Shown here in pieces: positions 16,811-51,811 of a stretch of 64,000 nt of DNA. Source of the stretch: Candidatus Forterrea multitransposorum CG_2015-17_Forterrea_25_41 (GTDB lineage: Archaea > Iainarchaeota > Iainarchaeia > Iainarchaeales > CSSED10-239); assembly GCA_009392915.1 (NCBI GenBank), contig CP045477.1, positions 384,001 through 448,000 on the forward strand. The letters are read 5' to 3'. The translations under genes were made by a program, and so were the position numbers. The notes beneath the pieces are model-generated. The model ran no database searches. It was not told the DNA's origin and saw only the letters and a program-made list of their open reading frames with translations. Numbering within the stretch: position 1 is the stretch's first letter; the number at the start of each line of letters is the position of its first letter.

Positions 16811-16831
16811 AGAGGGTAAATGGCCGAGAAA
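16811..16831. promoter_or_regulatory. Copy 1 of recurrent GC-rich 21-bp motif AGAGGGTAAATGGCCGAGAAA, in the uvrB / 16896 divergent promoter region
   Basis: Exact 21-mer, identical to the copy at 20347..20367. It lies about 10 bp upstream of a TATA-like element (minus orientation) preceding uvrB. Confidence 0.5.
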
Positions 16832-16895
16832 ATTAAAAAGAAGAATTTATAAACTTTTTTAATAACTTTATAAATATATTAAATAGGGAATAAAC

Positions 16896-17675
16896 ATGCC
16901 TCAAAGAAGAAATTTACTTAGAAAAAATCCATCCATCTCAGAATCAATTAAAAACACAAGAGAAAATCCAACCAAAAACAGAAGGAAACTAAATGAAACT
17001 TTAGAAAGATCAAAATCACAACAATATGAAGGTTGGAGAGGTTGTGATGGTGGTTTTCAAAGATATAAAGAAGTTTTTAAAAAAAGTTTAAATGATAGAC
17101 CTACTAATTTTCTTTTAGAAGAATTAAAAGTACATAATCCAAATGTAATGATGCTTGGACCTGGAAAAGGACATTATGCAGCTCTCTTTAAAAAAGAGCT
17201 TGAAAGTATTGGTGTTAATATTCACATAGATACGCTTGGCTTTAGTAAAACTATTGATAAAGAATTAATTAGAGATGAATTAATAAGAAAAGATCATTCT
17301 CCACATATTTCAAAAGCAACTGCTTTTGAACATATAAACCCAAAAGAACATCCAAAACTTATAAAAAAAATAAAAGGAAAATATCATCTAGTCATAGGAG
17401 AAAGATCTGTAGGTTTATATGGTGAATCAAAGCCTTATGCTATTTTTCAAACAGCTTTATTACTTGAAAAAAGAGGAAGAGCATTTTTGGACGTGCAATT
17501 TACTAAAGAAACCTTAAAAGATATTGTAGAAGTCTCAAAAAGGATGTTAAGAGCATATAATAAAGCAAACAATACAGATTTAGAGTATAAAATAACTGCT
17601 TTAAAGGACACTTTAGTTACCTCTCAAGATCTTAGAACACAAGCAATATATATTCAAATAGATAGGGTAAATTAG
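16896..17675 (+). CDS. Hypothetical protein
   Basis: A 259-aa ORF with no recognisable motif. Confidence 0.35.
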   Translation: MPQRRNLLRKNPSISESIKNTRENPTKNRRKLNETLERSKSQQYEGWRGCDGGFQRYKEVFKKSLNDRPTNFLLEELKVHNPNVMMLGPGKGHYAALFKKELESIGVNIHIDTLGFSKTIDKELIRDELIRKDHSPHISKATAFEHINPKEHPKLIKKIKGKYHLVIGERSVGLYGESKPYAIFQTALLLEKRGRAFLDVQFTKETLKDIVEVSKRMLRAYNKANNTDLEYKITALKDTLVTSQDLRTQAIYIQIDRVN

Positions 17676-17707
17676 TTATTCTTATTTTAAAAAAAAGTGT
17701 TTTACTT

Positions 17708-18274
17708 ATGATCTTAAATTGGAAATTAATTATAAAAAAATCAAAAGCATTAATGGAAAAACAAACAAAATTAAATAAATCTCCTCCATTGCAACTTACA
17801 AAAATTGCAATAGAAAAAGGAAAAGACTTATCCAAAAGTCATAAAGTGGATAAAAATTTAGTAATAGTCTCTCTCTATTTAGCACACACAATATTTAATC
17901 AACAGAAATCTTCAAAAATAAGAAAAGAACATCCTAAATTAAGTTCTAATTTTGTAAAACCATATTTAAACGAATGGAAAATACCTATAAAAGAGCAAAA
18001 AATAATATTAAATAGTATAGAAGCACATCACGGTAGTATAAAAACAGAAACTAAAATTGCAGAAGTTGTAAAAAATGCAGAATGTTTTAAATTTGTCACA
18101 ATAGAAGGTTCTTTAATATATTTTCACGAGCTTGGTAAAAGAGGTACAAATTATAAAGAAGCAAAAAAGTTAGTTTTAGAAAAAGCAAATGAAAAGTACA
18201 AGTTATTAACATTTAAAGAATGTATTAAAGATGTTGAAGAACAAATGAAGGTTATAAACCATATTTTTAAATAA
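17708..18274 (+). CDS. Hypothetical protein
   Basis: A 188-aa ORF. It has weak HD-like histidines (IEAHHGS); not assignable. Confidence 0.35.
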   Translation: MILNWKLIIKKSKALMEKQTKLNKSPPLQLTKIAIEKGKDLSKSHKVDKNLVIVSLYLAHTIFNQQKSSKIRKEHPKLSSNFVKPYLNEWKIPIKEQKIILNSIEAHHGSIKTETKIAEVVKNAECFKFVTIEGSLIYFHELGKRGTNYKEAKKLVLEKANEKYKLLTFKECIKDVEEQMKVINHIFK

Positions 18275-18286
18275 ATAAAAAGAATC

Positions 18287-18360
18287 AATTTTAACAAAGC
18301 TTAAAGATAATGGGCATATACCTTACCATTATAGATAGCTGATTTTTTAAAAAGCCCTTC
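18287..18360 (-). repeat. Duplicated copy of the 3' end of the GNAT gene at 20383..20456 (about 85% identity over about 70 bp)
   Basis: 18301-18360 (taaagataatgggcatataccttaccattatagatagctgatttttt aaaaagcccttc) aligns with 20397-20456. Its RC reads ...EGLFKKSAIYNGKVYAHYL*. Confidence 0.6.
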
Positions 18361-18365
18361 TAACG

Positions 18366-18444: not shown

Positions 18445-19206
18445 TCATACAATTATCTTTAAAATTAGTTTTTCAATTATATCTTTATTTATTCTAAGTA
18501 TGCTAGAGACCTGTTCTAGTTCTTCTTTAGTTATATTTGTTTTAAATTTAATCAATCTTTCTTTAATCGTGTGATTTTTTATAAAAGAAATTAAAGTAGA
18601 TATATCTTCTCCAGAATATAAACATAAAGCAACTATATCACAATAATCTTTAATCTTTTTATGTGTTTGACCTCTATTTACTACAGAATTTATCTTAGTA
18701 GCTAATAATAGAGGTGGAGAGGGTAGCCATAATTTTTTATTAAATTCAATTAATTCTGTTCTATATTTTTTATTCTCAAACACTAACTTAACTAAAGGTT
18801 CATCTGCAGGTGCAAATCCAAGTTCATTTATTATTTGTTTGTTAGTTTCTGCAATTAAAAGATCAATATACATAGGAAAAATATTATGAATAGGAGTGGT
18901 GATTGATTCTTCTTTGGTTAGTTCTTTTCCAGTTTCATAATTTATTTCTTTTAAATATCTAAAACTAACTAATTTAAATCCATTTTCTTCTAAAATATTA
19001 GATGTATATTTAAATGATTTTATAGTATTAAACCCTAAATCTACATCTCTTGAACCAATATAATCAGTTCCAAATTCTGATTTATATCTTGAATTTACAG
19101 TTAAATATGTAGCCCAACCTCCAATAATTATAATTGGTTCTTTTAGTTTAGATATAATTATTTTTAAATAATCATAACTAATTTCAGTTTCTTTTTTGTC
19201 GTACAT
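18445..19206 (-). CDS. Pol-beta-superfamily nucleotidyltransferase, AbiEii-like candidate toxin
   Basis: The NTase signature IIGGWATYL...GSRDVDLGF (GS-x9-13-DxD) is present. It overlaps the upstream wHTH gene by 23 bp, as in abiEi/abiEii pairs. Confidence 0.45.
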   Translation of the reverse strand: MYDKKETEISYDYLKIIISKLKEPIIIIGGWATYLTVNSRYKSEFGTDYIGSRDVDLGFNTIKSFKYTSNILEENGFKLVSFRYLKEINYETGKELTKEESITTPIHNIFPMYIDLLIAETNKQIINELGFAPADEPLVKLVFENKKYRTELIEFNKKLWLPSPPLLLATKINSVVNRGQTHKKIKDYCDIVALCLYSGEDISTLISFIKNHTIKERLIKFKTNITKEELEQVSSILRINKDIIEKLILKIIV

Positions 19207-19777
19207 ATTTATTAAGTAGTATATTATATGCTTCTATACATACCCCACCTTCTTTTTTAAGATCAATTAATAATTGAGGAATAGAGACAACCTTGAGTTC
19301 GTTTATTTTATTTGATTCTTTAAAAACATCTTTACCTTTTGAAATGATTAAAACTACATTTCCATTACCAATCAATCCTTTAGTTAAGATTAAATCTTTC
19401 CATTTTACATAATCTTCTTTAGAAATATATGCTTGAAATTTGTGTGGGAATAGATGATGATTAATTATATTTTCAGCAGCATAGGTTGTTAATGCATAAT
19501 CTAAGTTAGTTGTTTTAAAAAAATCAAGTGGATTTGATATATGAAAGTAATATTGTTCATATTTTTTATCTATTTTTATATAATAATCAATAAGTTTATT
19601 GACATCAATAACTTTTGTTTTTTCAATAATCCCTTCATTTTCTAATTTTCTAAGAAATTGAATAGTCCAAGCAATAGAGGTATTTGAAATTTTTGAAAGT
19701 TTATACTTAGTTAAACTTCCATCTGGATTATTTAGAAGAATTTTTATGATTTTTAGATTTTTTATATTTCTCATCAT
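19184..19777 (-). CDS. Winged-helix transcriptional regulator, AbiEi-like candidate antitoxin
   Basis: An N-terminal wHTH (SKISNTSIAWTIQFLRKLENEGIIEK) plus a C-terminal domain. It is paired upstream of the NTase gene. Confidence 0.4.
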   Translation of the reverse strand: MMRNIKNLKIIKILLNNPDGSLTKYKLSKISNTSIAWTIQFLRKLENEGIIEKTKVIDVNKLIDYYIKIDKKYEQYYFHISNPLDFFKTTNLDYALTTYAAENIINHHLFPHKFQAYISKEDYVKWKDLILTKGLIGNGNVVLIISKGKDVFKESNKINELKVVSIPQLLIDLKKEGGVCIEAYNILLNKYVRQKRN

Positions 19778-19791
19778 ATATATATTGGTTA

Positions 19792-20295
19792 TTAGAAGGG
19801 TTTATAAAGGTTACCGATATATTGGTAATATTGGTAGTATATAAACTTAACCAATATAGCTATTAACCAATACTTCTTTTTATACTCTCTAGCATCAATT
19901 CTTTCTTTTAATTTTATTCTTTCTTCTACAAGTTCTTGTTTTCTTGTCTGAATTGCAAAATAACTTTGAGCAAATGCAATTTCTTCTTTTCTTGAGTCTC
20001 CATTTTGTGCTATTAAGTAACATGCATATCTAGTTAATGTATAATCAATTATTTCTCTTTCTGCATCAGATCCTAATTTAACCTTTTTCCTGACCTCAAG
20101 AAAATGGTCATTAATATTAAATCCTGAATTTTTACAAGAAATTTTTGCTTTTTCAATTATACTTACAAAATTTTCCCATTTAGTATAACCTAAAAGGTCT
20201 TGTAACTCCCTTGCAAGCCAAAATTCAAGATTATCTTTAAAATAAGCACTATCTTGAAAACTTTTAGTTAGTTTATAAATTATTTCTCTTTGCAT
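19792..20295 (-). CDS. DinD-like protein (DNA-damage-inducible protein D N-terminal/Bro-N-like domain), C-terminally short
   Basis: EFWLARELQDLLGYTKWENF...TRYACYLIAQNGDSRK...YFAIQTRKQEL matches E. coli DinD as I recall it (recalled from memory, not checked). About 167 aa, versus about 270 for DinD. Confidence 0.6.
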   Translation of the reverse strand: MQREIIYKLTKSFQDSAYFKDNLEFWLARELQDLLGYTKWENFVSIIEKAKISCKNSGFNINDHFLEVRKKVKLGSDAEREIIDYTLTRYACYLIAQNGDSRKEEIAFAQSYFAIQTRKQELVEERIKLKERIDAREYKKKYWLIAILVKFIYYQYYQYIGNLYKPF

Positions 20296-20346
20296 AGAAC
20301 ATCACATATATATAAGAGTCTTTAATTTATATATTGATTTTGTAAG

Positions 20347-20367
20347 AGAGGGTAAATGGCCGAGAAA
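20347..20367. promoter_or_regulatory. Copy 2 of the 21-bp motif AGAGGGTAAATGGCCGAGAAA, upstream of the DinD-like gene
   Basis: Exact 21-mer. In minus orientation it is followed about 14 bp later by TATATAAATTAAAG, then the ATG at 20295. Confidence 0.5.
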
Positions 20368-20382: not shown

Positions 20383-20934
20383 TTATTTTAATAAAGCATA
20401 AAGATAATTATCATATACTTTACCATTATAGATAGCTGATTTTTTTAAAAGCCCTTCTTTTTTAAATTTACTTTTTTCTAAAACTTTAATAGAGCCTATA
20501 TTTTTAGTACAAACTTCAGCTGCTATTCTTTTAATACAGGTATTTTTAAATAAAAAATGAATATATGCTTTTATAGCTTCAGACATAAATCCTTTATTCC
20601 AATAAGAAGAATGAAGCATAAAACCTAAATCACATCTTTTAAAATCTTTAATAATTGTAAAAATATCAATAGAGCCTATTAATTTATTTTCATAAGTTAT
20701 AAAAAAAGAAGCTCCTTTTCTTTTTTTCCAAGCATCTACTTTTCTTAAAATTTGTTTTTCTACAATCTTTCTTGAGTTTTTATTATCTCCAGAACCATTA
20801 TATATCCAGAGATTTTTATCTTCATATAACTTATAAAGTTCTTCTTTATATTTTATATCTGGTTTTATAAGTAATAATCTTTTTGTCTTTACTGGCTTAT
20901 ACTTATAACCTTTGTTAAATATTTTTTCATCCAT
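20383..20934 (-). CDS. GNAT N-acetyltransferase (RimJ/RimL-like)
   Basis: The Acetyltransf_3-like core is RCDLGFMLHSSYWNKGFMSEAIKAYIHF. Its 3' 70 bp are duplicated at 18287..18360. Confidence 0.75.
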   Translation of the reverse strand: MDEKIFNKGYKYKPVKTKRLLLIKPDIKYKEELYKLYEDKNLWIYNGSGDNKNSRKIVEKQILRKVDAWKKRKGASFFITYENKLIGSIDIFTIIKDFKRCDLGFMLHSSYWNKGFMSEAIKAYIHFLFKNTCIKRIAAEVCTKNIGSIKVLEKSKFKKEGLLKKSAIYNGKVYDNYLYALLK

Positions 20935-21627: not shown

Positions 21628-22008
21628 TTAAATTTCAATTATGTATTCTTTTAAAACTTTTGTACCCCATATTCTAAACTGAGTTGCTTTAGATGAATTT
21701 ACTCTATATCCTACTGATATTATTGCATCTAAATTATAAAAATCAACATTTCTTTTAACATCTCTAGTTCCTTCTTTTTGAACTATTAGGAATTTCCTAA
21801 TAGTTTGATTTTTATTTAACTCTGCAGAATCATATATATTTTTTAGATGTTCATTTATAGTTGGGATTTCAACTCCAAATAATTCTGCAATCCTTTTCTT
21901 AGTTAACCATATATTTTCATTATAAATATAAACATCTAATTTTACTTCTCCATCTGGAGATTTATACAATAAAAATTTATTATTTTTAGAAATGATCTCT
22001 TTAGTCAT
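21628..22008 (-). CDS. RhuM-family protein, N-terminal portion only (truncated)
   Basis: LLYKSPDGEVKLDVYIYNENIWLTKKRIAELFGVEIPTINEHLKNIY...ATQFRIWGTKVLKEYI matches the conserved RhuM N-terminus. It stops at about 126 aa, where RhuM proteins (about 330 aa) continue. Confidence 0.55.
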   Translation of the reverse strand: MTKEIISKNNKFLLYKSPDGEVKLDVYIYNENIWLTKKRIAELFGVEIPTINEHLKNIYDSAELNKNQTIRKFLIVQKEGTRDVKRNVDFYNLDAIISVGYRVNSSKATQFRIWGTKVLKEYIIEI

Positions 22009-25753: not shown

Positions 25754-26296
25754 AAATAAAGTATTTGAAACGTCAAAAGATATTATTTTTATAGTTTTAA
25801 TAATAATCCCTCTTTATTTTATATTTATAATAATATATAAAACTCATATATTATTTAATTATATCTTTTATAATAAAACATTTTAAATAAGAAAGAAATT
25901 ACAAGAAAAACCTTAAAATCTTTTCAAAAAGTTTAAAATTATCAAAAAAAGAATAAAAGAAAATAAAACTACTTACAATTAATAAGACTATTGGAAAATA
26001 TAATAAAAGGTTTCTAAATAAAACTAAAGGCCATGCAATAACATCCATTATAAAGAGAGAAAATTTATTCTTAAGTAGTAATAACTAAAAAAGTATTATA
26101 ACTATATTGATCTGTTTTTAATAAAAGAAAGGTAAAAATTTAAAAATATATTAATAATTGCAAAGGAAAAAGTGGCAATTAATAGATATATTGTTATTTT
26201 TTGTTTGTTTTTCATAATATAATATATTGTTAAAAGCTTTCTAACAGCTACAATTAAGTAAAACTTAAATATACTTATGTAACTCTTAATATTTAT

Positions 26297-26533
26297 ATGG
26301 TAGAAAAAGAACTTGCACTTATAATAAATGGAAACTTAAGAAAAAAGATAATATTAAGTTTAGCAATTCCTAACATAGCCACAAATTTAGCAAAAAAATT
26401 AGATGTTTCAAGATCTTCTGTATCAAGGACCTTATTATTTTTAGAGAAGCATTTTCTTGTAGAATGTATAAATAATGATGCAAGTTTTAACAGGTTATAC
26501 AAGCTTACCTTAAAGGTACAAGAAAGTTTCTGA
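26297..26533 (+). CDS. Small winged-helix DNA-binding protein (ArsR/TrmB-like)
   Basis: HTH is ATNLAKKLDVSRSSVSRTLLFLEKHFLV. It runs convergent to the end of the R-M operon. Confidence 0.4.
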   Translation: MVEKELALIINGNLRKKIILSLAIPNIATNLAKKLDVSRSSVSRTLLFLEKHFLVECINNDASFNRLYKLTLKVQESF

Positions 26534-26566
26534 TATGTTAAGGAAGATGTGATTATTATACTTTAA

Positions 26567-27220
26567 TTAAGTATAAATTATTTTACTTTTTATAAATTTA
26601 ATTTCAAGTTTTTCTGTGCATTTAATTTTAATTATTATATTTGCACTTTTTGAAAAATTATCTGCAAAAATATTTATGTTTGAACTAATTTTATATATTT
26701 TATTTTTTTCAAATTTAATTTTAGGAAATCCAATAGGTATTTGTTTAATCATAGGTAAAATATTTCCATTTATATTTACACTTCCTTCAAAAAAATTAAA
26801 TAAATCTAAATAATGCAATTCATTTTTAGATAAATTAAAATTTTCTTTACCTTCAGAACATTTACCTTTATGAGTTGCACTCCAGACAAAATAATTAGGA
26901 TCAAAAGGATATATTTTTTTATTATTCAATTTTATTTCATTACATTTAATTTTAATATTGTTTATTGCTATTGAACCTATATTTATTACTTTTATTCTAA
27001 AATAAATTAAATTACAACTTGAACCATCATGTTGATTAATATAAATTTTATTAATCTTATGAACACAGTTAACATCATCTAAATCAATTTTAATTTTTGG
27101 TTTTTTAATAAAATTAATAATATCTTCTTTAAATAATGCAACAACTACTGCACATAGAGTTAAAAAAGCCATAATTATTTGAATAATTGAATCTAAATTA
27201 TTTTCAACCATCAATACCAT
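26567..27220 (-). CDS. Single-pass membrane protein, last gene of the R-M operon (overlaps hsdR stop by 17 bp)
   Basis: An N-terminal TM helix is followed by a beta-rich, Cys-containing ectodomain. IYFRIKVINIGSIAINNIKIK resembles IYFYLSNVGQRPTTIKKM in the 34397..34879 product. Confidence 0.4.
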   Translation of the reverse strand: MVLMVENNLDSIIQIIMAFLTLCAVVVALFKEDIINFIKKPKIKIDLDDVNCVHKINKIYINQHDGSSCNLIYFRIKVINIGSIAINNIKIKCNEIKLNNKKIYPFDPNYFVWSATHKGKCSEGKENFNLSKNELHYLDLFNFFEGSVNINGNILPMIKQIPIGFPKIKFEKNKIYKISSNINIFADNFSKSANIIIKIKCTEKLEIKFIKSKIIYT

Positions 27221-30200
27221 CTCTACAAATTCTTTCTGCTTGTTCTAAAACCAATTTTACTGCTTCTGCTTGCATATCAGGAGGATAACCATACTTTGAA
27301 AGAATTCTCTTAACCAAAACTCTTATCTTTGCTCTTTCAGTTTCTCTAATTTCCCAATCAACGCTTGTTGTATTCTTTTTAATAGTATCTGTTAAAATTT
27401 TTGCAATAACAACTATTTGTTTATCCCCTAAAACATCTAAAGCACTTTTATTATTTGAAAGAGCATCATAAAAAGCAACTTCATCTTCGGATAAATCAAG
27501 TTCTTCACCTTTCTTTTCAGAAGCTTTAATTTCTTTTGCAATTTTTAATAGTTCTTCAATAACTTCAACAGTTGTTATACTTCTATTAGTATATAATTTA
27601 ATAATATTTTCAATCATTTCCTTAAAAGATCTTTGTTTTACAATATTTTTTCTAAATCTGGATTTAATTTCATCATTAAGAAGTTTTCTATACATCTCTA
27701 ATGCTAAATTCTTTTGAGGTAAATTTTTAATTTCAAGCATAAATTCTTCAGAAAGTATAGAAATATCTGGTCTTTTAAGTCCTGCAACTTTTAAAACATC
27801 CATAATTCCAGAAGACATTATTGATTTTGAAATTAATTGATTTAAATTTTGTTCTAAAAGCTCAGTTTGAGAAATATTTCTAGTAACAGTATTTTTTACA
27901 AACTGTGATTTAATTGCTTGGAAAAATGCAATTTCTTCTTTTAAATCTAAAGCTCTTTTATCAGGAACTGCTAAAGAGAATGCTCTTAAAAGATTAATAG
28001 TTGCATCAATAAATCTTTTTTTACCATCTTCTTGTTTTAATATATGTTCCATTGCATTAATTAAAAGCTTCATTCTATAATTTGTGTCTTTATTTTCTAA
28101 ATCATATTCAAACTTATATAATAAAGATTTAACAACATCATATTTATTTAATAATAAATTTACTGCTTCTTCTTGATTAATTCCAACCTTTTGTTGATCT
28201 TTTGGAGAATAATTACCTAAGGCTTCTTTTAATTGAGTAAGTATACTTATATAATCTACAATTAATCCACCTTGTTTTTCTCCAAAAACTCTATTTACTC
28301 TTGCAATTGCTTGCATTAAATTATGGTCTTTCATTGGTTTATCAATATACATTGTATGAAGAGAAGGAACATCAAAACCAGTAAGCCACATATCTCTTAC
28401 AATTACAAGTTTAATCTCTGAAGAAGGATCTTTAAAAACATCTCCAATTTCTCTTCTTTTTTCTGAATTTCTAATATGTCTTTGCCAGTCTAAAGGGTCA
28501 GTTGCGTTACCAGTCATTATTACCTTTAAAAATCCTTTTTTATCATCTTCGTTATCCCACTCTGGTTTAATTTTTATTATTTCATTATATAAATCTACAC
28601 ATATTCTTCTAGACATACAAACAATAATACCTTTTCCTGGCATTCCTAGTTGTCTTTCTTGGAAATGATTTATTATATCTTTTGCAATTTCTTTAATTCT
28701 TTCAGGATGACCTATTATTTTTTCAATTCTTGCCCATTTACTTTTTAATTGTTCTTTTGTATCTTTTTCTTCAGTTTCTGTTACATATTCAAAATCTTTA
28801 TCTAAAGTTATTTGAGATTCTGGATTTAAAGATATTTTTGCAAGTCTACTTTCATAGTAAATAGGAACTGTCATTTTATCTTCAACAGCTTTACTGATAT
28901 CATAAACATCTACATTTTCTCCAAATACATTTCTTGTACTTTTATCACTTTTTTCAATTGGAGTTCCTGTAAAACCAATATAGGTTGCATTTGGAAGAGC
29001 ATCTCTTAGGTTTTTTGCAAAACCTTCTAAAAAACCATATTGTGATCTATGTGCTTCATCAACAATAACAACTATATTTTCTCTATTTGATAGTTCTGGA
29101 TAAACTTCTCCTTTATTTTCTGATGAAAATTTTTGAATTGTTGAAAAAATAACTCCTCCAGAAGATACTTGTAATAGTCTTTTAATTTCTTCTCTATCTT
29201 CTGCTTGTTTTGGATCTTGTCTTAAAACATCTTTACATTTTGAAAATGTTGTGAAAAGTTGATCATCTAGTTCGTTTCTATCTGTTAAAACTAATAAAGT
29301 TGGATTGTTTAGTTGTTGTATAACTTTTCCTGAATAGAAAAGCATGGTTAATGATTTTCCTGAACCTTGAGTATGCCAAACAACACCTGCTCTTTTATCT
29401 TTTCCTTTAACAGCTTTAATTGTTGAAGATACTGCATTGTTTGTTGCATTATATTGATGATATGCTGCTATTTTTTTAATAGTTTTATCTTTATCTGCTT
29501 CATAGACTATAAAATTGTTTATTAAGTCTAATAATGTTTCTTTATTTAACATTCCTCTTATTAAAACTTCTAATTGTGTTAAATAAGAGGCTTGATCTTT
29601 ATATATTGTTTTCCAGATCATGAATCTATCTAGATTTGAAGAAATTGTTCCAACTCTTGTGTCTGTTCCGTCTGAAATTACTAAAATTTGATTATAGTTA
29701 AAGATTGTTGGAATTTCTTGTTTGTATGTTTGTAATTGGTTGTATGCTTTTTTAATATCTGCATTTTCATCTGTTGGATTTTTTAATTCTATTAAAACAA
29801 CTGGTATTCCATTTATAAATAAAATAATGTCTGGTCTTCTGGTATGTTCAGTTTCTTTAATTGTAAATTGGTTTAATGCTATAAATTCATTATTGTTTAT
29901 GTTATCTTTGTCTATTAAGTTTATTTTTATCCATTTTAGGTTTCCATTTATTCTTGTTTGAACGGTTATTCCTTCTGTTAGATATTTGTAAATTTGTTTG
30001 TTGTTTTCTATTAGTTTTTGTGATTCTATTCTTTGTAGTTTTTTAATAGCTTCTTGTTTTGCATCTTCAGGAAGATTTGGGTTTATATCACTTATTTTTC
30101 TTTTTAAAGTTTCATTTAAGAGCACTTGTGAGAAATCATCTCTTTCTGGTCTTTGGCTATCTGGAGCTATGTCTACTCCATTAAGTTTAGTGTAACCTAT

Positions 30201-30260
30201 TTCTTCAAACCAAGAAAGTGCTTGGTTTTCCACATCTCCTTCTCTTAAAAATGATGTCAT
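27204..30260 (-). CDS. hsdR: Type I restriction enzyme R subunit (HsdR)
   Basis: SF2 helicase motifs TQGSGKS (I) and VVIVDEAHRSQ (II, DEAH) are present. The N-terminal nuclease region and C-terminal HsdR domain follow, over about 1018 aa. Confidence 0.9.
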   Translation of the reverse strand: MTSFLREGDVENQALSWFEEIGYTKLNGVDIAPDSQRPERDDFSQVLLNETLKRKISDINPNLPEDAKQEAIKKLQRIESQKLIENNKQIYKYLTEGITVQTRINGNLKWIKINLIDKDNINNNEFIALNQFTIKETEHTRRPDIILFINGIPVVLIELKNPTDENADIKKAYNQLQTYKQEIPTIFNYNQILVISDGTDTRVGTISSNLDRFMIWKTIYKDQASYLTQLEVLIRGMLNKETLLDLINNFIVYEADKDKTIKKIAAYHQYNATNNAVSSTIKAVKGKDKRAGVVWHTQGSGKSLTMLFYSGKVIQQLNNPTLLVLTDRNELDDQLFTTFSKCKDVLRQDPKQAEDREEIKRLLQVSSGGVIFSTIQKFSSENKGEVYPELSNRENIVVIVDEAHRSQYGFLEGFAKNLRDALPNATYIGFTGTPIEKSDKSTRNVFGENVDVYDISKAVEDKMTVPIYYESRLAKISLNPESQITLDKDFEYVTETEEKDTKEQLKSKWARIEKIIGHPERIKEIAKDIINHFQERQLGMPGKGIIVCMSRRICVDLYNEIIKIKPEWDNEDDKKGFLKVIMTGNATDPLDWQRHIRNSEKRREIGDVFKDPSSEIKLVIVRDMWLTGFDVPSLHTMYIDKPMKDHNLMQAIARVNRVFGEKQGGLIVDYISILTQLKEALGNYSPKDQQKVGINQEEAVNLLLNKYDVVKSLLYKFEYDLENKDTNYRMKLLINAMEHILKQEDGKKRFIDATINLLRAFSLAVPDKRALDLKEEIAFFQAIKSQFVKNTVTRNISQTELLEQNLNQLISKSIMSSGIMDVLKVAGLKRPDISILSEEFMLEIKNLPQKNLALEMYRKLLNDEIKSRFRKNIVKQRSFKEMIENIIKLYTNRSITTVEVIEELLKIAKEIKASEKKGEELDLSEDEVAFYDALSNNKSALDVLGDKQIVVIAKILTDTIKKNTTSVDWEIRETERAKIRVLVKRILSKYGYPPDMQAEAVKLVLEQAERICRDGIDG

Positions 30261-35370: not shown

Positions 35371-35372
35371 AT

Positions 35373-36890: not shown

Positions 36891-36960
36891 AATTAATCTC
36901 TTCTTTTATATAAATATAATATACATCTAAACACTTTTAAAGGTATTATGTATTAAAAAA

Positions 36961-37347: not shown

Positions 37348-37349
37348 TT

Positions 37350-38729
37350 TTAATCATATCTAAATCCATATTTTTCAGTTAATTTTTGCCATTCATCATG
37401 ATATTTTTTCCATTCATTATATTCAAATTCATCTAATACCTGGCCAGAACCATAACTATCTAATTTATTTTGCAAAAATTTTAATCTCAAATTATCATCA
37501 TATTCTTCTTTAACACTTTCAAAAGATTTACCTTCAGAAACAACATAAATATTTGGCTTTGAAATTAATTTACCTACTCCAATATAATCTCCATCACTAT
37601 CTGTAATAATACTTGGAGTTGTTGTTTCTATAAAACAATAACCAGAATTATTATAAGAATATTTAATTGGGCATTTTAATCCTATTGAAGCATGCTGCTC
37701 TAATTCAAAACTAAAAATTGCAACACCATAACCTAACTCTTTTAACATTAATGCAAGTAAATTTGTTTTATCCCCACAAACTCCTGTTTGATCATATAAT
37801 GTTTCATAAGCATATCTATTACTATAATTATGATTAAAAGAATCCCAATCATAAGGCATTGTTTGAACTAAACTGATTGCAATCCTTGCTTGATCATCAG
37901 TATTATTTGTTATTTTTTTAATTTCATTAATTAATGGTAGAATATATCTTTCTTGATCTTCAGTATTAACATACATTAATGACATATATTCAGAAGTAGG
38001 AGGAGATTCATAAGAAGAATAAGTTACTGTTCGAGGTAAATTTGACAAATAATAATTAAACCCATTATAGACAGTGTAATTAAAACTATTAGGTACACCT
38101 CTTAGAGTATAATTTAACTTAATTGGCTTAGGTTCAGTTTGCAATTTATGTAAACACTTCCCATTAATATAAATTTCATCTATATCACATAAACATTTTT
38201 CAGGAAACTCAATTAAATTACCTTTCTGACAAAAATAAGGCTTAATATTTGAACAATTATTATATAAAGTACCATCTTCACACCTATTAATAACAAAATT
38301 AAATAATAAATTCATAATTATATAAATTAGAATAATAATAATAACAATATTTCTTAATTGTTTAAATCTAATTTTTTTAAGTAAATGAATAACTAAAGTT
38401 AAAATTAAACTATTTAGTAAAATTATTATAAAAAAGTTAAAACTAACCTTTAATAATAGATAATTAAAACTTAATAAAATAATAACATAAACTAAAGTCC
38501 ATATAAATAAATAAAAATTAAATCTAAATTTATTTTTATAAATTATAACAGTTATTATGCGTGAAAATAAACTAAATATGATTGCTATAAATACTAATTT
38601 AGTGGTATTATTAACAATATTTAATAAATTTAAAAATAAAGAAGATAAATAATATAATAGACTATAAATTAATATCCAAAATAGAAACCAGTAAGATTTA
38701 TAAAATCTAAAAATATTATTATTTCTCAT
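37350..38729 (-). CDS. Polytopic membrane protein with C-terminal transglutaminase-like cysteine-protease domain
   Basis: About six N-terminal TM helices and a Cys-rich linker precede the domain. GVCGDKTNLLALMLKELGYGVAIF (Cys), EQHASIGL (His) and CFIETT follow. Confidence 0.45.
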   Translation of the reverse strand: MRNNNIFRFYKSYWFLFWILIYSLLYYLSSLFLNLLNIVNNTTKLVFIAIIFSLFSRIITVIIYKNKFRFNFYLFIWTLVYVIILLSFNYLLLKVSFNFFIIILLNSLILTLVIHLLKKIRFKQLRNIVIIIILIYIIMNLLFNFVINRCEDGTLYNNCSNIKPYFCQKGNLIEFPEKCLCDIDEIYINGKCLHKLQTEPKPIKLNYTLRGVPNSFNYTVYNGFNYYLSNLPRTVTYSSYESPPTSEYMSLMYVNTEDQERYILPLINEIKKITNNTDDQARIAISLVQTMPYDWDSFNHNYSNRYAYETLYDQTGVCGDKTNLLALMLKELGYGVAIFSFELEQHASIGLKCPIKYSYNNSGYCFIETTTPSIITDSDGDYIGVGKLISKPNIYVVSEGKSFESVKEEYDDNLRLKFLQNKLDSYGSGQVLDEFEYNEWKKYHDEWQKLTEKYGFRYD

Positions 38730-38746
38730 TTTATCACATTAATATT

Positions 38747-39094
38747 TCAATGTCTTTTTTTAATTGATCTTTTAGAAATATTAGAACTTCTATATCTTAC
38801 AGGTTTACTTTTTCTATAAGAATCTTTTAAAACAGAATCACTTTCATTTTTTAAATCATGAATAGTTGGTTCTTTATAACCTAACTGCTTTAAAGCAGAA
38901 TCAAATATCTTTGTAAAGCTTAAGTTATTCTCTTGTACAAATCTTTCTTGACTTTTTGTAATTCTCATATTTATTCTTATATTTCTTCTTTCTGGAGAAG
39001 TATCTCTTTTTACATCTTCTATATTCATATAAATCAATCCCTTAAATACACTTTTCCCAATCAAGAGCATAGTGTATATACAACTTTGACACAA
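38747..39094 (-). CDS. Small basic protein, possibly ribbon-helix-helix DNA-binding (true start probably the internal Met at MNIEDVK...)
   Basis: RNIRINMRITKSQERFVQENNLSFTKIFDSALKQL fits a beta-alpha-alpha RHH pattern. Weak. Confidence 0.3.
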   Translation of the reverse strand: MCQSCIYTMLLIGKSVFKGLIYMNIEDVKRDTSPERRNIRINMRITKSQERFVQENNLSFTKIFDSALKQLGYKEPTIHDLKNESDSVLKDSYRKSKPVRYRSSNISKRSIKKRH

Positions 39095-39164
39095 CGAGTT
39101 TATAAATAGATCGATTACACTAAAATATAATAAAAAGAGAAGATTAAAAAATAAATCTTATCTA

Positions 39165-39890
39165 CTAAACTTTAATCTCTATTAAAACAGGATTATGGTC
39201 ACTAAATCTTCTAATTTCATCATTTTCAAGAACTTTGCAAGAAATAATGTTTTTAAAAATAGGTTTATTCATAAAAAAGTAATCATTTTGCCACTTAACT
39301 TTACTTTTTTTATGTCTTAAGGTCTGTACAGGATATTCTTTATCAGTTAAATCAAAAGCATCAAAAAAATTAAAATCTTTTAATCTATCAAAAAAAATCT
39401 TATGAGAGTTATTATATTTATATATTAAATCAAATTGAATACTTGCATTTAAATCTCCCCCCAATATAATATTTCTTTTACCATTAAGTTTACCATAAAA
39501 CAAAGGAGATAAATCAGATAACATGCTATGTAGATTAGGAATTGAATAACCATCTGTCATAAGACCATATAATGATATAAAAGTAAGTTTTTTATTATTT
39601 ATAACAGTATTTGCTATTGTTAAAGATCCATTAAATTTAGTATTTATTGTTTCCTGAGAAAGATTGTATTTTTTACTATAAATTCCAGATCCCCAATTAC
39701 GATTTTTATCAATTTTATTCCAAATAAGATTTGAATCTTTTTTAATATGTTCAGGAGGATTTGATTCTTGAAATAAATATATATCTGCATCAATATTATT
39801 TAAAAAATAATCCCAAATATCTTTATTTAGCTTTTTATTTTTCCAATAATCCATATTCCAAGTAACTATTTTAATATTCATTCTTATCAA
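39165..39890 (-). CDS. Endonuclease/exonuclease/phosphatase (EEP) family protein
   Basis: IVTWNMDYW, FQESNP, GGDLN and SDHNPV match conserved EEP catalytic blocks. Confidence 0.7.
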   Translation of the reverse strand: MIRMNIKIVTWNMDYWKNKKLNKDIWDYFLNNIDADIYLFQESNPPEHIKKDSNLIWNKIDKNRNWGSGIYSKKYNLSQETINTKFNGSLTIANTVINNKKLTFISLYGLMTDGYSIPNLHSMLSDLSPLFYGKLNGKRNIILGGDLNASIQFDLIYKYNNSHKIFFDRLKDFNFFDAFDLTDKEYPVQTLRHKKSKVKWQNDYFFMNKPIFKNIISCKVLENDEIRRFSDHNPVLIEIKV

Positions 39891-39898
39891 TTTTTATT

Positions 39899-40738
39899 TT
39901 AAATAACCTTCTTAATATTCTTTTCCAAGTAAACAATAAACTTATCTTTATTCTTTCCTTTTAACTTTTCCCAAGAATTATATACTTTTCTTATTTTATC
40001 TTCTAAAATAATATCTTCTTTATCATTATATCTGTATCTTGCATATTTTTCTTTATTATAACCTAACTTATATGCTAAAATATTTTCAATAGTAGATGTA
40101 AAAGTTTCACTAAATGACTGCTTTTTTATTCCACCATATTTATCTAAAATATATTTTTCAATTCTATTATATATTTCATTATTTGAATTAATTACATGAA
40201 TAAGTTCATGAATTAATAAAATATATATTCTATTTTTAGTAAATTTTCTATAATCAACATCATCTCCTATAGATATATGAAAAGATAAATTTGTTGCAGA
40301 ACCTCCAAAACCAGGCCTTGTATTATTTGCAACAAAGAAAGTAGAGCTTACTTTTGTAGAATTATAAATAACATCTAAATAAGGTTTAATTATTTTAAGT
40401 TCTTTCTCTTTAAAATTAGTTATAAATGTATTTAGAAAATCTTCTGATTTTTTATTAATAACAATAGGAAATAATTTTTTTAAAACAATTAGATGTTTTT
40501 TTTCAATATTACTTAATTTTTTTTTATTAACAATATTATCTATTAAATTTTTGTAATTAAGCCTATTTGTAGAAATAATACTATAATCTTTATTAATCAA
40601 AAAAATTAAATCTACCATTTCTTTTAATTGATTTTTATTAGCAAAAGTATAAACTTTATCAATATTACAATATGCTTTACAAGCAAGTCTTAAATCTTTT
40701 GAAGGTTTTATTAAGTTTAGTTTAATATCAACACTCAT
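39899..40738 (-). CDS. Hypothetical HExxH-motif protein (putative zinc metallopeptidase)
   Basis: ILLIHELIHVINSNNEIYN. Nothing else is diagnostic. Confidence 0.3.
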   Translation of the reverse strand: MSVDIKLNLIKPSKDLRLACKAYCNIDKVYTFANKNQLKEMVDLIFLINKDYSIISTNRLNYKNLIDNIVNKKKLSNIEKKHLIVLKKLFPIVINKKSEDFLNTFITNFKEKELKIIKPYLDVIYNSTKVSSTFFVANNTRPGFGGSATNLSFHISIGDDVDYRKFTKNRIYILLIHELIHVINSNNEIYNRIEKYILDKYGGIKKQSFSETFTSTIENILAYKLGYNKEKYARYRYNDKEDIILEDKIRKVYNSWEKLKGKNKDKFIVYLEKNIKKVI

Positions 40739-41244: not shown

Positions 41245-42603
41245 TTATTTATCAATAACTTTCCAATATCCTGCTTTGTCTGAACCTATTCTTTTTATCT
41301 TCTTTTGCTCTTTTAATATTTTTAAATATCTTTCAATAGTCTTTGTACTTAAATTAAATTCTGTTGCCATTTGAGCATAAGTAACTTTATTATTAGCTTT
41401 AATTAATTTTAATATTTTTACACCGACATTTACACCGACATTTACACCGACATTTACACCGACATTTACAGTGTCTTTTACAGGTGCATTTACACCGACA
41501 TTCATAGTAGATTCTATTATTTTTTGTCTTTTAAAAACAATACAAAACCAATCAGTATCTATATTAAACTTAACACTTGGAAAAAGTTTTTTTATTCTTT
41601 TAATACCAGAACCAATCTTTTCAATAAACTCTGTTCTTTGTAAACAACCTGCTAAAATAGGATTTCTTAATATACTTACTTTTCCAAAATCTTTTGGACT
41701 AAAAAGAAGTTTTCCTGGATTTAATATTTCAACTCTATCTTCATACACTTCTACCAATATTCTTCCTTGAACAAAATAATCTCTATGAATCATGGCATTT
41801 AGTACTGCTTCCCTTAAAGCAGCCTCTGGTATTTCAGGGGTTTCAACTCTTCTTAAATTAATAATATCAGCCCGTGTTTTTGTATTTCTTAGGATAAATA
41901 ACACAGCATTTTCAAAATTTGATAAAAAGTCAGATTCAAATACTTTTTTATCAAGCATAACAGCCTTAGTATCTCCTTGGTATAAAACACAACTAATATC
42001 TGCATTTAAAAAGAATTTAGTAATTCTTTTTGAAAATAATAATGCACAGGCATTATTTGGAATATCATTTGTTAAAAGATTTAAATTTTTTAAAATATGC
42101 TCTTTTGATAGAGTTGTTGAAAATTTTGCTTTTTTTCTATATTTAAGAAATTTAGTATTATCTATATCTTTAAAATTAAATGAAGAAGTTTGTTTTTCAA
42201 AAGAAATTTTATTTTCGTTTTGTAAAAAATCAATAATTTCATTTCTATCTAGCTTTTGAGAGTTAGCACCTTGCCTTACATAAAAAGAACCACCTACTAA
42301 ATATGGTTTATCTTTTCCTAAAGGAACATATATTATACCAATATTATCTATGATTTCAAAATTAACAACTAAAGAGGGATCTATGTTTCTTGCAATTGTT
42401 TGTACTTCAGAGGAAAATCTATTGTTTATAGAAATACCTTTTATTTCTCCTTTATCTGTAACTCCTAAAAGAATTTTACCTCCATCTGAGTTTGCAAAAG
42501 CACAAATTGATTTTCCAATTTCTTTATGGTTTAAACTTTCTTTAAACTCAAGAGTATATCCTTCTCCTGTTTTTATAAGATTAAGTAAGTTCTTTTTATC
42601 CAT
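41245..42603 (-). CDS. AlbA_2 (Schlafen-like) domain plus divergent HATPase_c_4 ATPase plus C-terminal wHTH; putative ATP-dependent transcriptional regulator (RecG-C-terminal-like family)
   Basis: The AlbA_2 N-terminus is LIKTGEGYTLEFKESL...AFANSDGGKILLGV. The C-terminal HTH is KVTYAQMATEFNLSTKTIERYLKILK. An in-frame (VGVN)n linker lies between the domains. Confidence 0.6.
   Translation of the reverse strand: MDKKNLLNLIKTGEGYTLEFKESLNHKEIGKSICAFANSDGGKILLGVTDKGEIKGISINNRFSSEVQTIARNIDPSLVVNFEIIDNIGIIYVPLGKDKPYLVGGSFYVRQGANSQKLDRNEIIDFLQNENKISFEKQTSSFNFKDIDNTKFLKYRKKAKFSTTLSKEHILKNLNLLTNDIPNNACALLFSKRITKFFLNADISCVLYQGDTKAVMLDKKVFESDFLSNFENAVLFILRNTKTRADIINLRRVETPEIPEAALREAVLNAMIHRDYFVQGRILVEVYEDRVEILNPGKLLFSPKDFGKVSILRNPILAGCLQRTEFIEKIGSGIKRIKKLFPSVKFNIDTDWFCIVFKRQKIIESTMNVGVNAPVKDTVNVGVNVGVNVGVNVGVKILKLIKANNKVTYAQMATEFNLSTKTIERYLKILKEQKKIKRIGSDKAGYWKVIDK
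41419..41502. repeat. 12-bp tandem repeat (tacaccgacatt)x7, five perfect and two degenerate, in-frame within the AlbA_2 regulator gene
   Basis: Perfect units start at 41419, 41431, 41443, 41455 and 41491; degenerate units at 41467 and 41479. On the coding strand they encode NVGVNVGVNVGV... Confidence 0.85.
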
Positions 42604-42722: not shown

Positions 42723-42749
42723 GGGAGAGGCCTCGTGGCCGAGAAAAGA
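42723..42749. promoter_or_regulatory. Copy 3 (variant) of the recurrent motif, GGGAGAGGCCTCGTGGCCGAGAAAAG, upstream of the AlbA_2 regulator gene and divergent from leuS
   Basis: It shares the TGGCCGAGAAA core and AGAGG prefix, and contains the palindrome GAGGCCTC. In minus orientation it lies about 9 bp upstream of an ATATATATG TATA-like element. Confidence 0.4.
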
Positions 42750-42937
42750 GCTTTATAATTAAAAGTTACTAAAATGCGCAAAATAAAATTAAAAAAAGAA
42801 TATATTTAACAAAAAAAAGTAAAATTATTTTATTTAAATAAAACATAAAGTAAAATATGTTTAAATATGTTTTGCAAAGAAGATATATATTATATATAAA
42901 AGAATATATAACAAAAATTAAAAAAATATGAAAACTT

Positions 42938-49697: not shown

Positions 49698-49752
49698 ATA
49701 TTATATATAGACCAAAAAGTATTTAAATGTATTACATAGTAATACGCATCAA

Positions 49753-50391
49753 TTAAATTTTTAATTTGTTTTTATCAACAATCTTAGATAAAAGAACAGA
49801 GTCTTTCTTTTCATAAAATTCAAAAGCATCTAAAATATCTAAATAAACATTTTCTAAAATATTGTTTGCAGTCTTTTTTGAAATCTTTTTAGTTTTATTT
49901 AATTTTTTTAAAAAAGAGATTACATCTTTAATGTCCTTACTTATATTTTTTTCATTAAAATTATTAAATTTAATAGTAAGGTCTTTTAATTTTAAAAAAT
50001 CTTTATCAACTTTGATAAATACAACTTCTTTTTTATTTACTTCTTTAAAAAACTTATAATGTTTCTTTAAAAAATCATAAATATCTTTATCAATTATGCT
50101 TTCTTGTATAAAATGTTTCTTATGATTTAATTTAGAGTATACAAAATGCTCTAAGAAACTATTTGTTTTACCTTCTTTTTTAAGAAGTAAAAGTAAATAG
50201 AAATAAATATGAAAGATACTATTTGAATAAAGATTATGCTTTTCACAATAGACTTTAACATAATTAAAAAAAGAATCTAAATCGTTTTTTAAAAGAAGTT
50301 TTAAAGATTTAGAAATAAACTCATCATTAATGTAAGAAGGTTTCTTAAAGTATTTTTTTAAAGTTAAATTATTTTTTAATTTTAAAAGCAT
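49753..50391 (-). CDS. Hypothetical protein
   Basis: A 212-aa ORF with no motif. Confidence 0.3.
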   Translation of the reverse strand: MLLKLKNNLTLKKYFKKPSYINDEFISKSLKLLLKNDLDSFFNYVKVYCEKHNLYSNSIFHIYFYLLLLLKKEGKTNSFLEHFVYSKLNHKKHFIQESIIDKDIYDFLKKHYKFFKEVNKKEVVFIKVDKDFLKLKDLTIKFNNFNEKNISKDIKDVISFLKKLNKTKKISKKTANNILENVYLDILDAFEFYEKKDSVLLSKIVDKNKLKI

Positions 50392-50518
50392 AATTTATCA
50401 CTAATTAACATATATATTATATACATGTCCTTTTTAAATACATATTTTTTATTAATTTCAAACCAAATAAAATAAATATAAAAAAAGAGATAAAATATAA
50501 TATCAAGGAGGGATCTTT

Positions 50519-51175
50519 TTGGAGTATGATAAAGAAAAAATGGAAAAGGCAAATAATTTAGTTAAAATACTAGAAAAAAAAGAAATACCTATTGAAATAA
50601 CTAATTTTAAAGAAGAAACTATTAAAGAGTTAAATAATTTCTACAATTACAACATAAACCCTGATTTTAAAATCATTCTTTTAGATAAAAGAGAAGAGTT
50701 TGATATTATTTCTGGAGAAAAAACCAAAGATTGGATGATTGGTAGAACCATATATGTAATTGGAAAAATAATAATATTTAACATAGATGCAGTTGAAAGA
50801 GAAACAAATCACAAAAAAGAAGATTTTTATAAAACTTTAAAACATGAAATTGCACATCTTTATTTTTTTAAAATAAGCTCTAAAGGTCACCCTAAATGGT
50901 TAAATGAAGGAATGGGATATTTTCTTGCAAAACAAGACTATAAAGATCTTCCTTTAGAACAAGCAGTTGAAGCAATAGATCAATTTAATAGCTTTGATGG
51001 AAAACATTATCCACATAGTGCAAAATTAGTAAGATTACTAATAGAAAAATATGGAAAAGAAAAAATTATTGAATTAATTAACTCTTGGTACTATAAAAGA
51101 GATGAGTTTGAAAATAATTTTAAAGAGATATATGGTTTTAAGTTTACAAAAGAAGAGCTTATTAAAAATCTTTAA
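50519..51175 (+). CDS. Hypothetical HExxH protein (zincin-like metallopeptidase fold candidate)
   Basis: LKHEIAHLYFF...WLNEGMGYF has HExxH plus a downstream Glu. Confidence 0.35.
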   Translation: MEYDKEKMEKANNLVKILEKKEIPIEITNFKEETIKELNNFYNYNINPDFKIILLDKREEFDIISGEKTKDWMIGRTIYVIGKIIIFNIDAVERETNHKKEDFYKTLKHEIAHLYFFKISSKGHPKWLNEGMGYFLAKQDYKDLPLEQAVEAIDQFNSFDGKHYPHSAKLVRLLIEKYGKEKIIELINSWYYKRDEFENNFKEIYGFKFTKEELIKNL

Positions 51176-51768
51176 TATTGTCTAATCTTATCAATATTAA
51201 GCTCCATAGTTACCTTATGAACCTCTTCTGTTAATTCCATATCTTTTAAAAGATATTTTTCAATAGAGGCATAGTCTTTCTTATGACAAAGCTCTGCAAC
51301 CATAGATCCATCAATATCATCTATTAAAGAAACACCAATAGCTTCTCCAAACTCTTTTAAGGTTCCTCTGCTTTTACCATATCTAAAACAAGTAATATAA
51401 TCTCTTAAGTCAAGTATTTCTTTTAAAGAAAAATGTTGTATCTTTACTCTATTAATAAAGCTTCTTGTAACTAGAAAAGAAATATCAAAACTTTTAATAT
51501 TAAAACCAACTATTCTAAAGACAGGATATTTTGTTTTAAAATCTTTAAAGTAGTTCCAGAACTTTTCTAAAAGTTCTTTTTCATTCTCTCCAATTAAAAT
51601 AACTGAATCTTTATCTTTTTCTTTAAGACCAATAGCTATAACTTTTGAATCAACTGGGTTAATTAGCTTTTGTCTTTCCTCTTCCTCTTTTTCAAAATAA
51701 CCATCAAAGGTAACAGGACAGGTTTCAATATCTAAATATAAGTAGTTCATATAGATATATGGTAGCAA
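51172..51768 (-). CDS. Predicted 3'-5' exonuclease related to the PolB exonuclease domain (DEDDy); real start probably ATG at 51750
   Basis: Exo I is YLYLDIETCP, Exo II is IVGFNIKSFDISFL and Exo III is YLLKDMELT. The track start is a TTG; an in-frame ATG lies 6 codons downstream. Confidence 0.55.
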   Translation of the reverse strand: MLPYIYMNYLYLDIETCPVTFDGYFEKEEEERQKLINPVDSKVIAIGLKEKDKDSVILIGENEKELLEKFWNYFKDFKTKYPVFRIVGFNIKSFDISFLVTRSFINRVKIQHFSLKEILDLRDYITCFRYGKSRGTLKEFGEAIGVSLIDDIDGSMVAELCHKKDYASIEKYLLKDMELTEEVHKVTMELNIDKIRQY

Positions 51769-51788
51769 AAATATATATCTTTATCTAA

Positions 51789-51811
51789 AGAGGGTATCTG
51801 GCCGAAGAAAG
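51789..51811. promoter_or_regulatory. Copy 4 (variant) of the recurrent motif, AGAGGGTATCTGGCCGAAGAAAG, about 40 bp upstream of the PolB-like exonuclease gene
   Basis: Same CTAAAGAGGGTA prefix as copy 1 and the same TGGCCGA(A)GAAA core. An ATATATATTTTT TATA-like element lies between the motif and the start. Confidence 0.4.

Follow-up and report, generated by a model that had tools for sequence, protein, structure and literature searches.

Closest Described Systems

In Escherichia coli, uvrB and dinD are repressed by LexA, and toxin-antitoxin genes are also members of the SOS response; the SOS boxes are palindromic, lie across the promoter and serve as binding sites of a repressor that cleaves itself. 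To our knowledge, no transcriptional network for DNA damage has been established in archaea outside the Sulfolobales, with their Orc1-2 and TFB3 proteins, and we know of nothing on gene regulation in the DPANN archaea, which are mostly uncultured. Here, we describe a motif that occurs four times in a 64-kb stretch of archaeal DNA (contig CP045477.1, positions 384,001 to 448,000; the whole stretch is called the window), upstream of uvrB, a truncated dinD, a gene for a Schlafen-GHKL protein with a winged helix-turn-helix (wHTH) domain, and a gene for a PolB-exonuclease-like protein. The core conserved across sites reads GG(C/T)CA-N4-CCCTC. The motif is probably the binding site of a sequence-specific transcription factor, with activation as the most likely mode of action, and would mark a small repair/defence regulon; we assign this reading a probability of about 0.6. 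That the motif is a regulatory protein-binding site of one kind or another is highly probable.

The motif shares uvrB and dinD as targets with the LexA/SOS system. Unlike a LexA box, it is asymmetric, is situated 9-12 bp upstream of a putative TATA-like box, and belongs to an archaeal host. Archaeal activators usually bind upstream of the transcription factor B recognition element (BRE) and the TATA box, and sites of this kind next to the BRE include the GvpE upstream activating sequence (UAS) and those of Ptr2, TFB-RF1 and EarA. In position and polarity the motif appears to resemble these upstream activating sites most: it would lie directly upstream of BRE and TATA box, it is ~20 bp long and bipartite, and its orientation matters. 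In contrast to them, it has a different sequence and gene set, and the analysis identified no homologue of any of these activators.

In the Sulfolobales, the ANTTTC damage-response element (~20-bp consensus AATAGTTTCRGWDTACTCWS) is located at -23 to -55 from the ATG and is bound by Orc1-2, an activator with wH and AAA+ domains (PMC6061795). Like this element, the motif is archaeal, asymmetric, promoter-proximal and ~20 bp long. Its GG(C/T)CA-N4-CCCTC core is different, however; many sites have TTTC in the 5' flank, without conservation of the A that ANTTTC has two positions ahead of it. The targets are ups, ced and tfb3 in Sulfolobales, as against uvrB, dinD and the Schlafen gene here, and the window contains no Orc1 paralogue. 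DdaA, a WYL-family activator of the Moraxellaceae that was found from its motif, activates both repair and anti-phage defence genes (PMC12392091). In both cases, DNA-damage-response genes of a group that has no classical SOS system are preceded by a conserved motif. DdaA, in contrast, depends on a sigma factor and is bacterial, its motif has a sequence unrelated to the present one, and the window showed no protein with a WYL domain. A search of the literature returned neither this motif nor a DPANN damage regulon.

Motif Copies and Their Rarity

The four copies follow the pattern TTTCTCGGCCA-N4-CCCTCT, as read on the minus strand, in DNA whose GC content ranges from 20 to 28%. The layout is bipartite and asymmetric, with a T-rich flank, TCGGCCA, 4 bp and CCCTCT.

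S1, 16809..16831, minus strand: TTTCTCGGCCATTTACCCTCTTT, 39.3 bits; within the 149-bp divergent intergenic region upstream of uvrB
S2, 20345..20367, minus strand: TTTCTCGGCCATTTACCCTCTCT, 42.1 bits; 15 nt past the stop codon of a GNAT gene and 49 nt before the ATG of the dinD fragment
S3, 42724..42746, minus strand: TTTCTCGGCCACGAGGCCTCTCC, 35.8 bits; second half GCCTCT; upstream of the Schlafen-GHKL-wHTH gene; conserved in the related contig L089
S4, 51787..51809, minus strand: TTCTTCGGCCAGATACCCTCTTT, 37.0 bits; 6 nt past the stop codon of a GNAT gene

The first-pass annotation of the window had located four copies at these places and described two of them as identical at 21 of 21 positions; both observations are borne out, 16811-16831 and 20347-20367 being the same over 21 bp. 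The bit scores derive from a 23-bp position matrix that was built from 10 sites, without those of the related loci L083, L102, L085, L087 and L103. In a scan of the 64 kb, the four copies scored 35.8-42.1 bits and the next best site 13.9 bits, while the maximum in shuffled sequence was 15.7 bits (20 shuffles). This clean split indicates that the window has exactly four copies, without a tail of weak ones. A 20-mer search with up to 3 mismatches recovered S1 and S2 (expected 0, from 100 shuffles), and a search with the core TGGCCGARRAA recovered all four copies (expected 1.0). All four are intergenic, though intergenic DNA makes up only 8.5% of the window (0.085^4 = 5e-5), and all four are on the minus strand, in the orientation of the downstream genes.

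Among 185,579 species genomes, the strict pattern gave 62 matches, which is about the chance expectation, and those in L034, L049 and L064 are the only relevant ones; a metagenome contig collection gave 12 matches. Just two strict copies per contig were found in close relatives (contigs of 246, 368 and 151 kb), both at the exonuclease locus. Viral contigs gave 12 pattern matches, all in unrelated, GC-richer DNA, and no relevant copies. The concern that the motif might be common genome-wide is eased as far as the window and the large contigs of close relatives go, where strict copies are rare.

Comparison of the motif with its own reverse complement shows no dyad symmetry beyond GGCC. An RNA element or terminator was rejected on the absence of a stable fold or hairpin in predictions at the four sites, read as DNA or as RNA, and of any Rfam family matching them. 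TGGCCGAG resembles the D-arm of a class II tRNA, but a tRNA fragment was rejected: the sequence does not continue as a tRNA, ARAGORN found none, and the site is conserved before orthologous genes. An origin recognition box was likewise rejected: such boxes form clustered, inverted copies around an AT-rich unwinding element beside orc1/cdc6, whereas the four copies here are scattered across 35 kb of a single strand, every one of them within a promoter, and show no skew change.

Promoter Architecture

In the four window copies, the last conserved T of CCCTCT is separated by 9-12 bp from the following ATATATA-type box and by 38-102 bp from the ATG. The intervening 9-12 bp end in an A-rich, BRE-like stretch (AGAAA or CAAAA), to which the ATATATA(A/T) box is joined; ~10 bp past this box there is a CT(A/T)ATATATAT block, with the ATG 4-79 nt later. 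An alignment of 16 non-redundant promoters reveals that the order of motif, A-rich stretch, ATATATA box and CTAATATATAT is constant, that the orientation relative to the gene is identical in all 16, and that variation is absent or almost absent at positions 19-23 (GG.CA) and in the C-run. The motif, which ends about one helical turn upstream of the TATA-like box, would therefore occupy roughly -40 to -62 from the likely start site, directly upstream of the BRE. The earlier description of a promoter-associated element shared by four genes holds; the copies are intergenic and in fixed orientation upstream of TATA-like boxes. Other promoters of the window differ, often with a CTTTTAAA-type box and without the motif. 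A scan of the window for bacterial sigma-70 promoters gave no more matches than in shuffles, which fits an archaeal host.

uvrB core promoter, 16771..16801, minus strand: TATTTATATTT (16791-16801), TTAAAATAA and CTAATATATAT (16771-16781), with the ATG 24 nt further, as inferred from sequence
Exonuclease promoter box (S4), 51767-51778: ATATATATTTTT, with the ATG at 51750

At S4, the ATG is only 16 nt past the first AT-rich box, and the exonuclease motif DIET begins at residue 7. Because ATG and DIET motif follow so closely, the first AT-rich box must presumably be the TATA box, and the transcript is predicted to be close to leaderless. The exonuclease most likely starts at ATG 51750 and not at TTG 51768.

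GNAT acetyltransferase genes (20383-20934 and 51816-52352 in the window; 3229-3636 in L089) are situated directly upstream of three motif sites, on the same strand. These window motifs begin 6-15 nt past the GNAT stop codon, and transcription of the upstream GNAT gene could also terminate in the T-rich 5' flank of the motif.

We also note a second short element, GCGCATTTTAG, at 42769-42781 (minus strand), 23 bp upstream of the Schlafen-gene motif; a single copy in the window is not above chance. L089 has four copies of it (3670-3840), two within a repeated unit of ~30 bp, and L085 has two copies of a related ACCGCGCAA(A)TTAG.

Host and Genes Downstream of the Motif

The host is a small-genome DPANN archaeon of Iainarchaeum type. 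The sole tRNA of the window, which is also its sole Rfam match, is a 72-nt tRNA-Tyr of the short archaeal/eukaryal type. Domain matches confirm the identities that had been given to the downstream genes (uvrB, DinD-like, PolB-like exonuclease and AlbA_2/Schlafen).

uvrB, 14818..16746, minus strand: 642 aa; Pfam UvrB_inter, UvrB, Helicase_C, ResIII and UVR
Probable operon, 18445..20295, minus strand: truncated dinD with HTH_24-like and AbiEii-like genes
dinD fragment, 19792-20295, minus strand: 167 aa, Bro-N; NF008573 at 190 bits over the N-terminal 137 aa
HTH_24-like protein gene, 19184-19777, minus strand: second in the probable dinD-fragment operon
AbiEii-like nucleotidyltransferase gene, 18445-19206, minus strand: third in the probable dinD-fragment operon
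Schlafen (AlbA_2)-GHKL (HATPase_c_4)-wHTH gene, 41245..42603, minus strand: 452 aa; Pfam SLFN_AlbA_2, HATPase_c_4 and HTH_11/24
PolB-exonuclease-like / RNase H-fold gene, 51172..51750, minus strand: 192 aa from the ATG; DNA_pol_B_exo2/RNase_H_2; D-I-E-T motif near the N terminus

The window DinD covers only positions 1-143 of the NF008573 profile, with 190 bits against a curated cut-off of 242 bits, and the restriction of the match to the N-terminal part of the profile identifies the gene as truncated. The full-length DinD orthologue in L004 reaches 345 bits, above the cut-off. The window gene encodes 167 aa, the Bro-N half, as against 278 aa in L004, and is followed on the same strand by an AbiEi/AbiEii-like pair, which suggests that a toxin-antitoxin pair replaced the 3' half of dinD. 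A second Bro-N related fragment, the N-terminal part of a RhuM family protein, is located at 21628-22008 (minus strand), 1.3 kb from the dinD fragment and without an upstream motif.

The catalytic motif E14-x4-E19-x-K21 of the Schlafen domain is intact in the window protein, and E14, E19 and K21 are invariant in 7 orthologues. The N-terminal two thirds of the protein match the Schlafen-GHKL part of the SLFN-pAgo model. With PF04326 bearing Ex4(E/D)xK, a GHKL-type domain and an HTH, the protein belongs to the pSlfn-HisKinase-HTH class, in which the Schlafen domain is treated as a nuclease effector in phage defence (PMC13056530). The linker before the wHTH (residues ~375-405) is a VNVG tandem repeat of strain-variable length; the orthologue P0143 is 8 residues shorter.

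Conservation in Related Archaea

The relatives compared are diverged, Iainarchaeum-like DPANN archaea, represented by UvrB and Schlafen orthologues with their contigs. The motif precedes uvrB in 5 of 7 lineages.

L002, UvrB 93%: uvrB site TTTCTCGGCCATTTAACGATTCC
L102, UvrB in the same 90% cluster: uvrB site TTCTCGGCCAAGATGCCTCTCT
L004, UvrB 86%: site TTTCTCGGTCAATTACCCTCTCT, before a full-length dinD in an operon with uvrB
L008, UvrB 73%: uvrB site TTTCTGTGGTCAGGTGCCCTCTCT
L083, UvrB 73%: uvrB site TTTTGCTTGGCCAGGACCCCCCTCT
L006 and L084, UvrB 74% and 73%: no uvrB site

At the Schlafen gene, the motif is present in all 5 lineages examined; the sites in relatives are as follows.

L089, Schlafen protein 93%: site TTTCTCGGCCACGACCCCTCTCC
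L085, Schlafen protein 71%: site TTTTGCTTGGCCAGCAACCCCCCCT
L103: Schlafen gene site TTTTGCTTGGACAGCTACCCCCTCC
L087, Schlafen protein 68%: site TTTCTCGGACAGGTACCCCTCCG, preceding a DUF5680 gene whose next neighbour downstream is the Schlafen gene

The motif is thus kept in relatives at uvrB, at the dinD-uvrB operon and at the Schlafen gene; a lack of conservation in orthologous promoters was what the first-pass annotation had named as counting against its proposal. At uvrB, the flanks diverge around a retained motif, and in L002 it is the first half of the motif that is kept. The loci outside the matrix set (L083, L102, L085, L087 and L103) score 20-27 bits, each site being the top match of its locus in the expected place and orientation. 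A variant, TTTTGCTTGG(C/A)CAG...CCCCC, is common to the uvrB promoter of L083 and the Schlafen promoters of L085 and L103; a single factor that reads all sites and has drifted in specificity would be expected to leave such a pattern. Members of the putative regulon are also linked to each other elsewhere: dinD with uvrB in L004, and the Schlafen gene with the exonuclease gene in L103, where the exonuclease orthologue (65% to that of the window) follows the Schlafen gene at a distance of 74 nt, with both genes on one strand. A nucleotidyltransferase-like gene of unknown function is a further motif target in L049. The RNase_T exonuclease beside uvrB in L002 and L004 is the orthologue of the window gene 7933-8529, not of the motif-bearing exonuclease, and has no motif. 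Between the Schlafen and exonuclease genes of L103, a 27-nt inverted repeat (GATGGTATCACAAAATGCGATACCATC) is found at 9940-9990, which could be a terminator or a separate operator.

A Toxin Cassette at Motif Promoters

A cassette of an 86-aa wHTH gene and a ParE-type toxin gene lies between the GNAT and exonuclease genes in the close relatives L034, L073, L075 and L081, with a motif copy on each side; in L034 (822-1700), the two copies share 39 identical bp comprising motif, BRE and TATA box. The same cassette is present directly upstream of the uvrB motif in L002 (2124-2945), with a motif of its own and a toxin gene decayed by stop codons. The cassette is absent from the window, which has the empty site at 51751-51815. 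Toxin cassettes travel with, or into, motif promoters, and the simplest explanation of the pattern is recombination through the shared promoter sequence; there is a low probability that the motif is also a recombination target.

Function of the Motif

We infer that a protein binds the motif and that it activates rather than represses. A bound factor would help TBP and TFB assemble on these promoters under a stress signal, either DNA damage or mobile-element attack, and the regulon in Iainarchaeum-like DPANN would comprise uvrB, dinD, the Schlafen-GHKL-wHTH nuclease, the PolB-exonuclease-like protein and toxin-antitoxin cassettes. Activation is considered most likely because of the position of the motif upstream of BRE and TATA box and its fixed polarity. 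DNA damage is argued for as the signal because uvrB and dinD are SOS genes in E. coli and form one operon under the motif in L004; its chances fall slightly short of even. Several points weigh against the reading as a whole. The TATA and BRE assignments are sequence-based, and AT-rich boxes are easy to find in a genome of 24% GC. uvrB lacks the motif in one related lineage (L006/L084), and uvrC in L083 is also without a site. L083 and L085/L103 may come from different lineages. Half of the associated genes, moreover, are defence or toxin-antitoxin genes, so that DNA damage is only one possible signal.

A LexA-like repressor could use the motif as its operator, blocking TFB and TBP from a position beside the BRE until a damage signal removes it. 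The precedent of the LexA-repressed uvrB and dinD agrees with such a scheme; steric interference is conceivable where the site abuts the BRE-like stretch, and the second conserved block, CTAATATATAT at the likely start site, could belong to the operator. Dyad symmetry is absent, however, the motif overlaps neither the TATA box nor the start site, where known archaeal repressors act, and activator sites, more typically than operators, show the strict polarity found in 16 of 16 promoters; repression is accordingly rated unlikely, though worth keeping in view. From the earlier proposal of a DNA-damage regulon operator, the shared cis-element is retained and the operator is doubtful, the site being asymmetric and upstream of BRE and TATA box. 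Fixed polarity and spacing to the TATA box would also suit an extension of the core promoter that is read, in place of a gene-specific regulator, by a paralogue of TFB or TBP as alternative basal factor, but the element reaches ~30 bp upstream of the TATA box, past the TFB footprint on the BRE, and lineages differ in the motif sequence but share the generic A-rich BRE-like stretch. Even with TFB3-type paralogues taking part in the Sulfolobales damage response (PMC6061795), this is the least probable of the explanations weighed here.

The genes themselves might point to a defence or mobile-element programme unrelated to DNA damage, tied for example to a response to infection or to toxin-antitoxin homeostasis, with uvrB as a recruited member. 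Its defence-leaning components are the Schlafen nuclease, which matches the SLFN-pAgo model in its Schlafen-GHKL part, DinD, which matches the defence candidate PDC-S13, the AbiEii-like gene and ParE cassette, and the nucleotidyltransferase-like gene in L049; prokaryotic Schlafens are phage-defence nucleases (PMC13056530). On the other hand, uvrB is among the two best-conserved carriers of the site, and the dinD-uvrB operon of L004 is under it. We rate this programme no higher than repression. Damage and defence regulons are merged in bacteria in the case of DdaA (PMC12392091), so the readings are not exclusive, and the two signals likewise need not be. The motif might, finally, be a recombination or attachment site of mobile cassettes, its copies being insertion footprints, as the cassette between two copies before the exonuclease gene and uvrB, the 39 identical bp in L034 and the empty site in the window would allow; copies flank inserted DNA in the case of this cassette (L034 against the window, and L002), though not at the four window copies. 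Such a site is hard to reconcile with the lack of inverted repeats and of integrase or transposase domains in the scanned open reading frames (ORFs), with only ~21 bp common between loci, and with viral contigs devoid of copies; homologous recombination between shared promoters would account for the cassette pattern just as well. Conservation before orthologous core genes across 27% protein divergence, at fixed spacing to the TATA box, speaks against a purely mobile origin, and an attachment site is very improbable. The possibility of a mobile-element terminus, which the first-pass annotation had named as one outcome that would overturn its proposal, is thus touched in part by the ParE cassette.

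If an activator site is indeed what the motif represents, the coupling of repair and defence exemplified in bacteria by DdaA would have an archaeal counterpart. The motif is a compact, clearly delimited cis-element and as such a concrete handle on DPANN regulation, in which uvrB and dinD, genes of bacterial SOS type, come together with toxin modules and a Schlafen nuclease. Its 23-mer lends itself to use as bait in gel shifts or pull-downs, and the derived matrix to defining the regulon across the clade.

Candidate Factors

The AlbA_2/Schlafen protein had been proposed as the factor that reads the motif. In its favour, the gene carries the site in 5 of 5 lineages examined, and the protein ends in a wHTH. 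It is at least as likely to be a target as a regulator, because it belongs to a nuclease-effector class, has an invariant Ex4ExK and resembles SLFN-pAgo in its Schlafen-GHKL part; the protein stays on the list through the site at its own gene, and its role as the factor is doubtful. More speculative, and less probable again, is a LexA-independent, SOS-like programme of the Iainarchaeum group in which one factor co-activates nucleotide excision repair (uvrB), dinD, growth-arresting toxins and a Schlafen tRNA-type nuclease; here the Schlafen-GHKL-wHTH protein would be a sensor-regulator that binds its own promoter and those of the other targets through the wHTH, as a prokaryotic parallel to the way human SLFN11 is tied to DNA damage.

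The Bro-N domain of DinD is another candidate, as is a factor encoded elsewhere, for instance a paralogue of Orc1/Cdc6. Among the scanned window ORFs, no gene of the LexA (S24 peptidase-HTH), WYL or Orc1/Cdc6 type was seen; the only WYL-related match, weak and confined to the HTH, links the Schlafen protein to a WYL-regulator model. The 86-aa wHTH protein of the ParE cassette was rejected as a general regulator, being absent from the window. Changes in the wHTH recognition helix were also compared with the motif variants; both vary, and the link is not informative.

Neighbouring Genes

SprT-type proteases act in the repair of DNA-protein crosslinks. A gene for a weakly matching SprT-like/Peptidase_MA metalloprotease (50519-51175, plus strand) is convergent with the exonuclease gene, with a 4-bp overlap. 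Near uvrB, a gene at 17708-18274 (plus strand) encodes a 188-aa protein with a weak HD/Cas3''-like match; its 60% orthologue adjoins the Schlafen gene in L087 (5346-5915), and the protein may be another associate of the regulon.

In L085 and L087, the Schlafen gene adjoins genes that are located at 22-27 kb in the window. This synteny implies that the restriction-modification island of the window is an insertion between a small wHTH gene (26297-26533) and the Schlafen gene, and that the Schlafen gene is conserved in the chromosome and is not one of the island genes. The defence island (27204-40738) contains a type I restriction-modification system (HsdR, HsdS and HsdM), a GajA/OLD-like AAA_15 ATPase (30257-32140), a PIN_12 protein and an ExoIII-like nuclease (39165-39890). 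An isolated right half-site, CCCTCTTT, is present at 25808-25815 (plus strand) within an 813-bp gap (25754-26566) and is followed by an AT-rich box. It lies ~490 bp upstream of the small wHTH gene, an ORF of 78 aa whose orthologue is near the Schlafen gene in L085 and L087, and may be a decayed site or due to chance.

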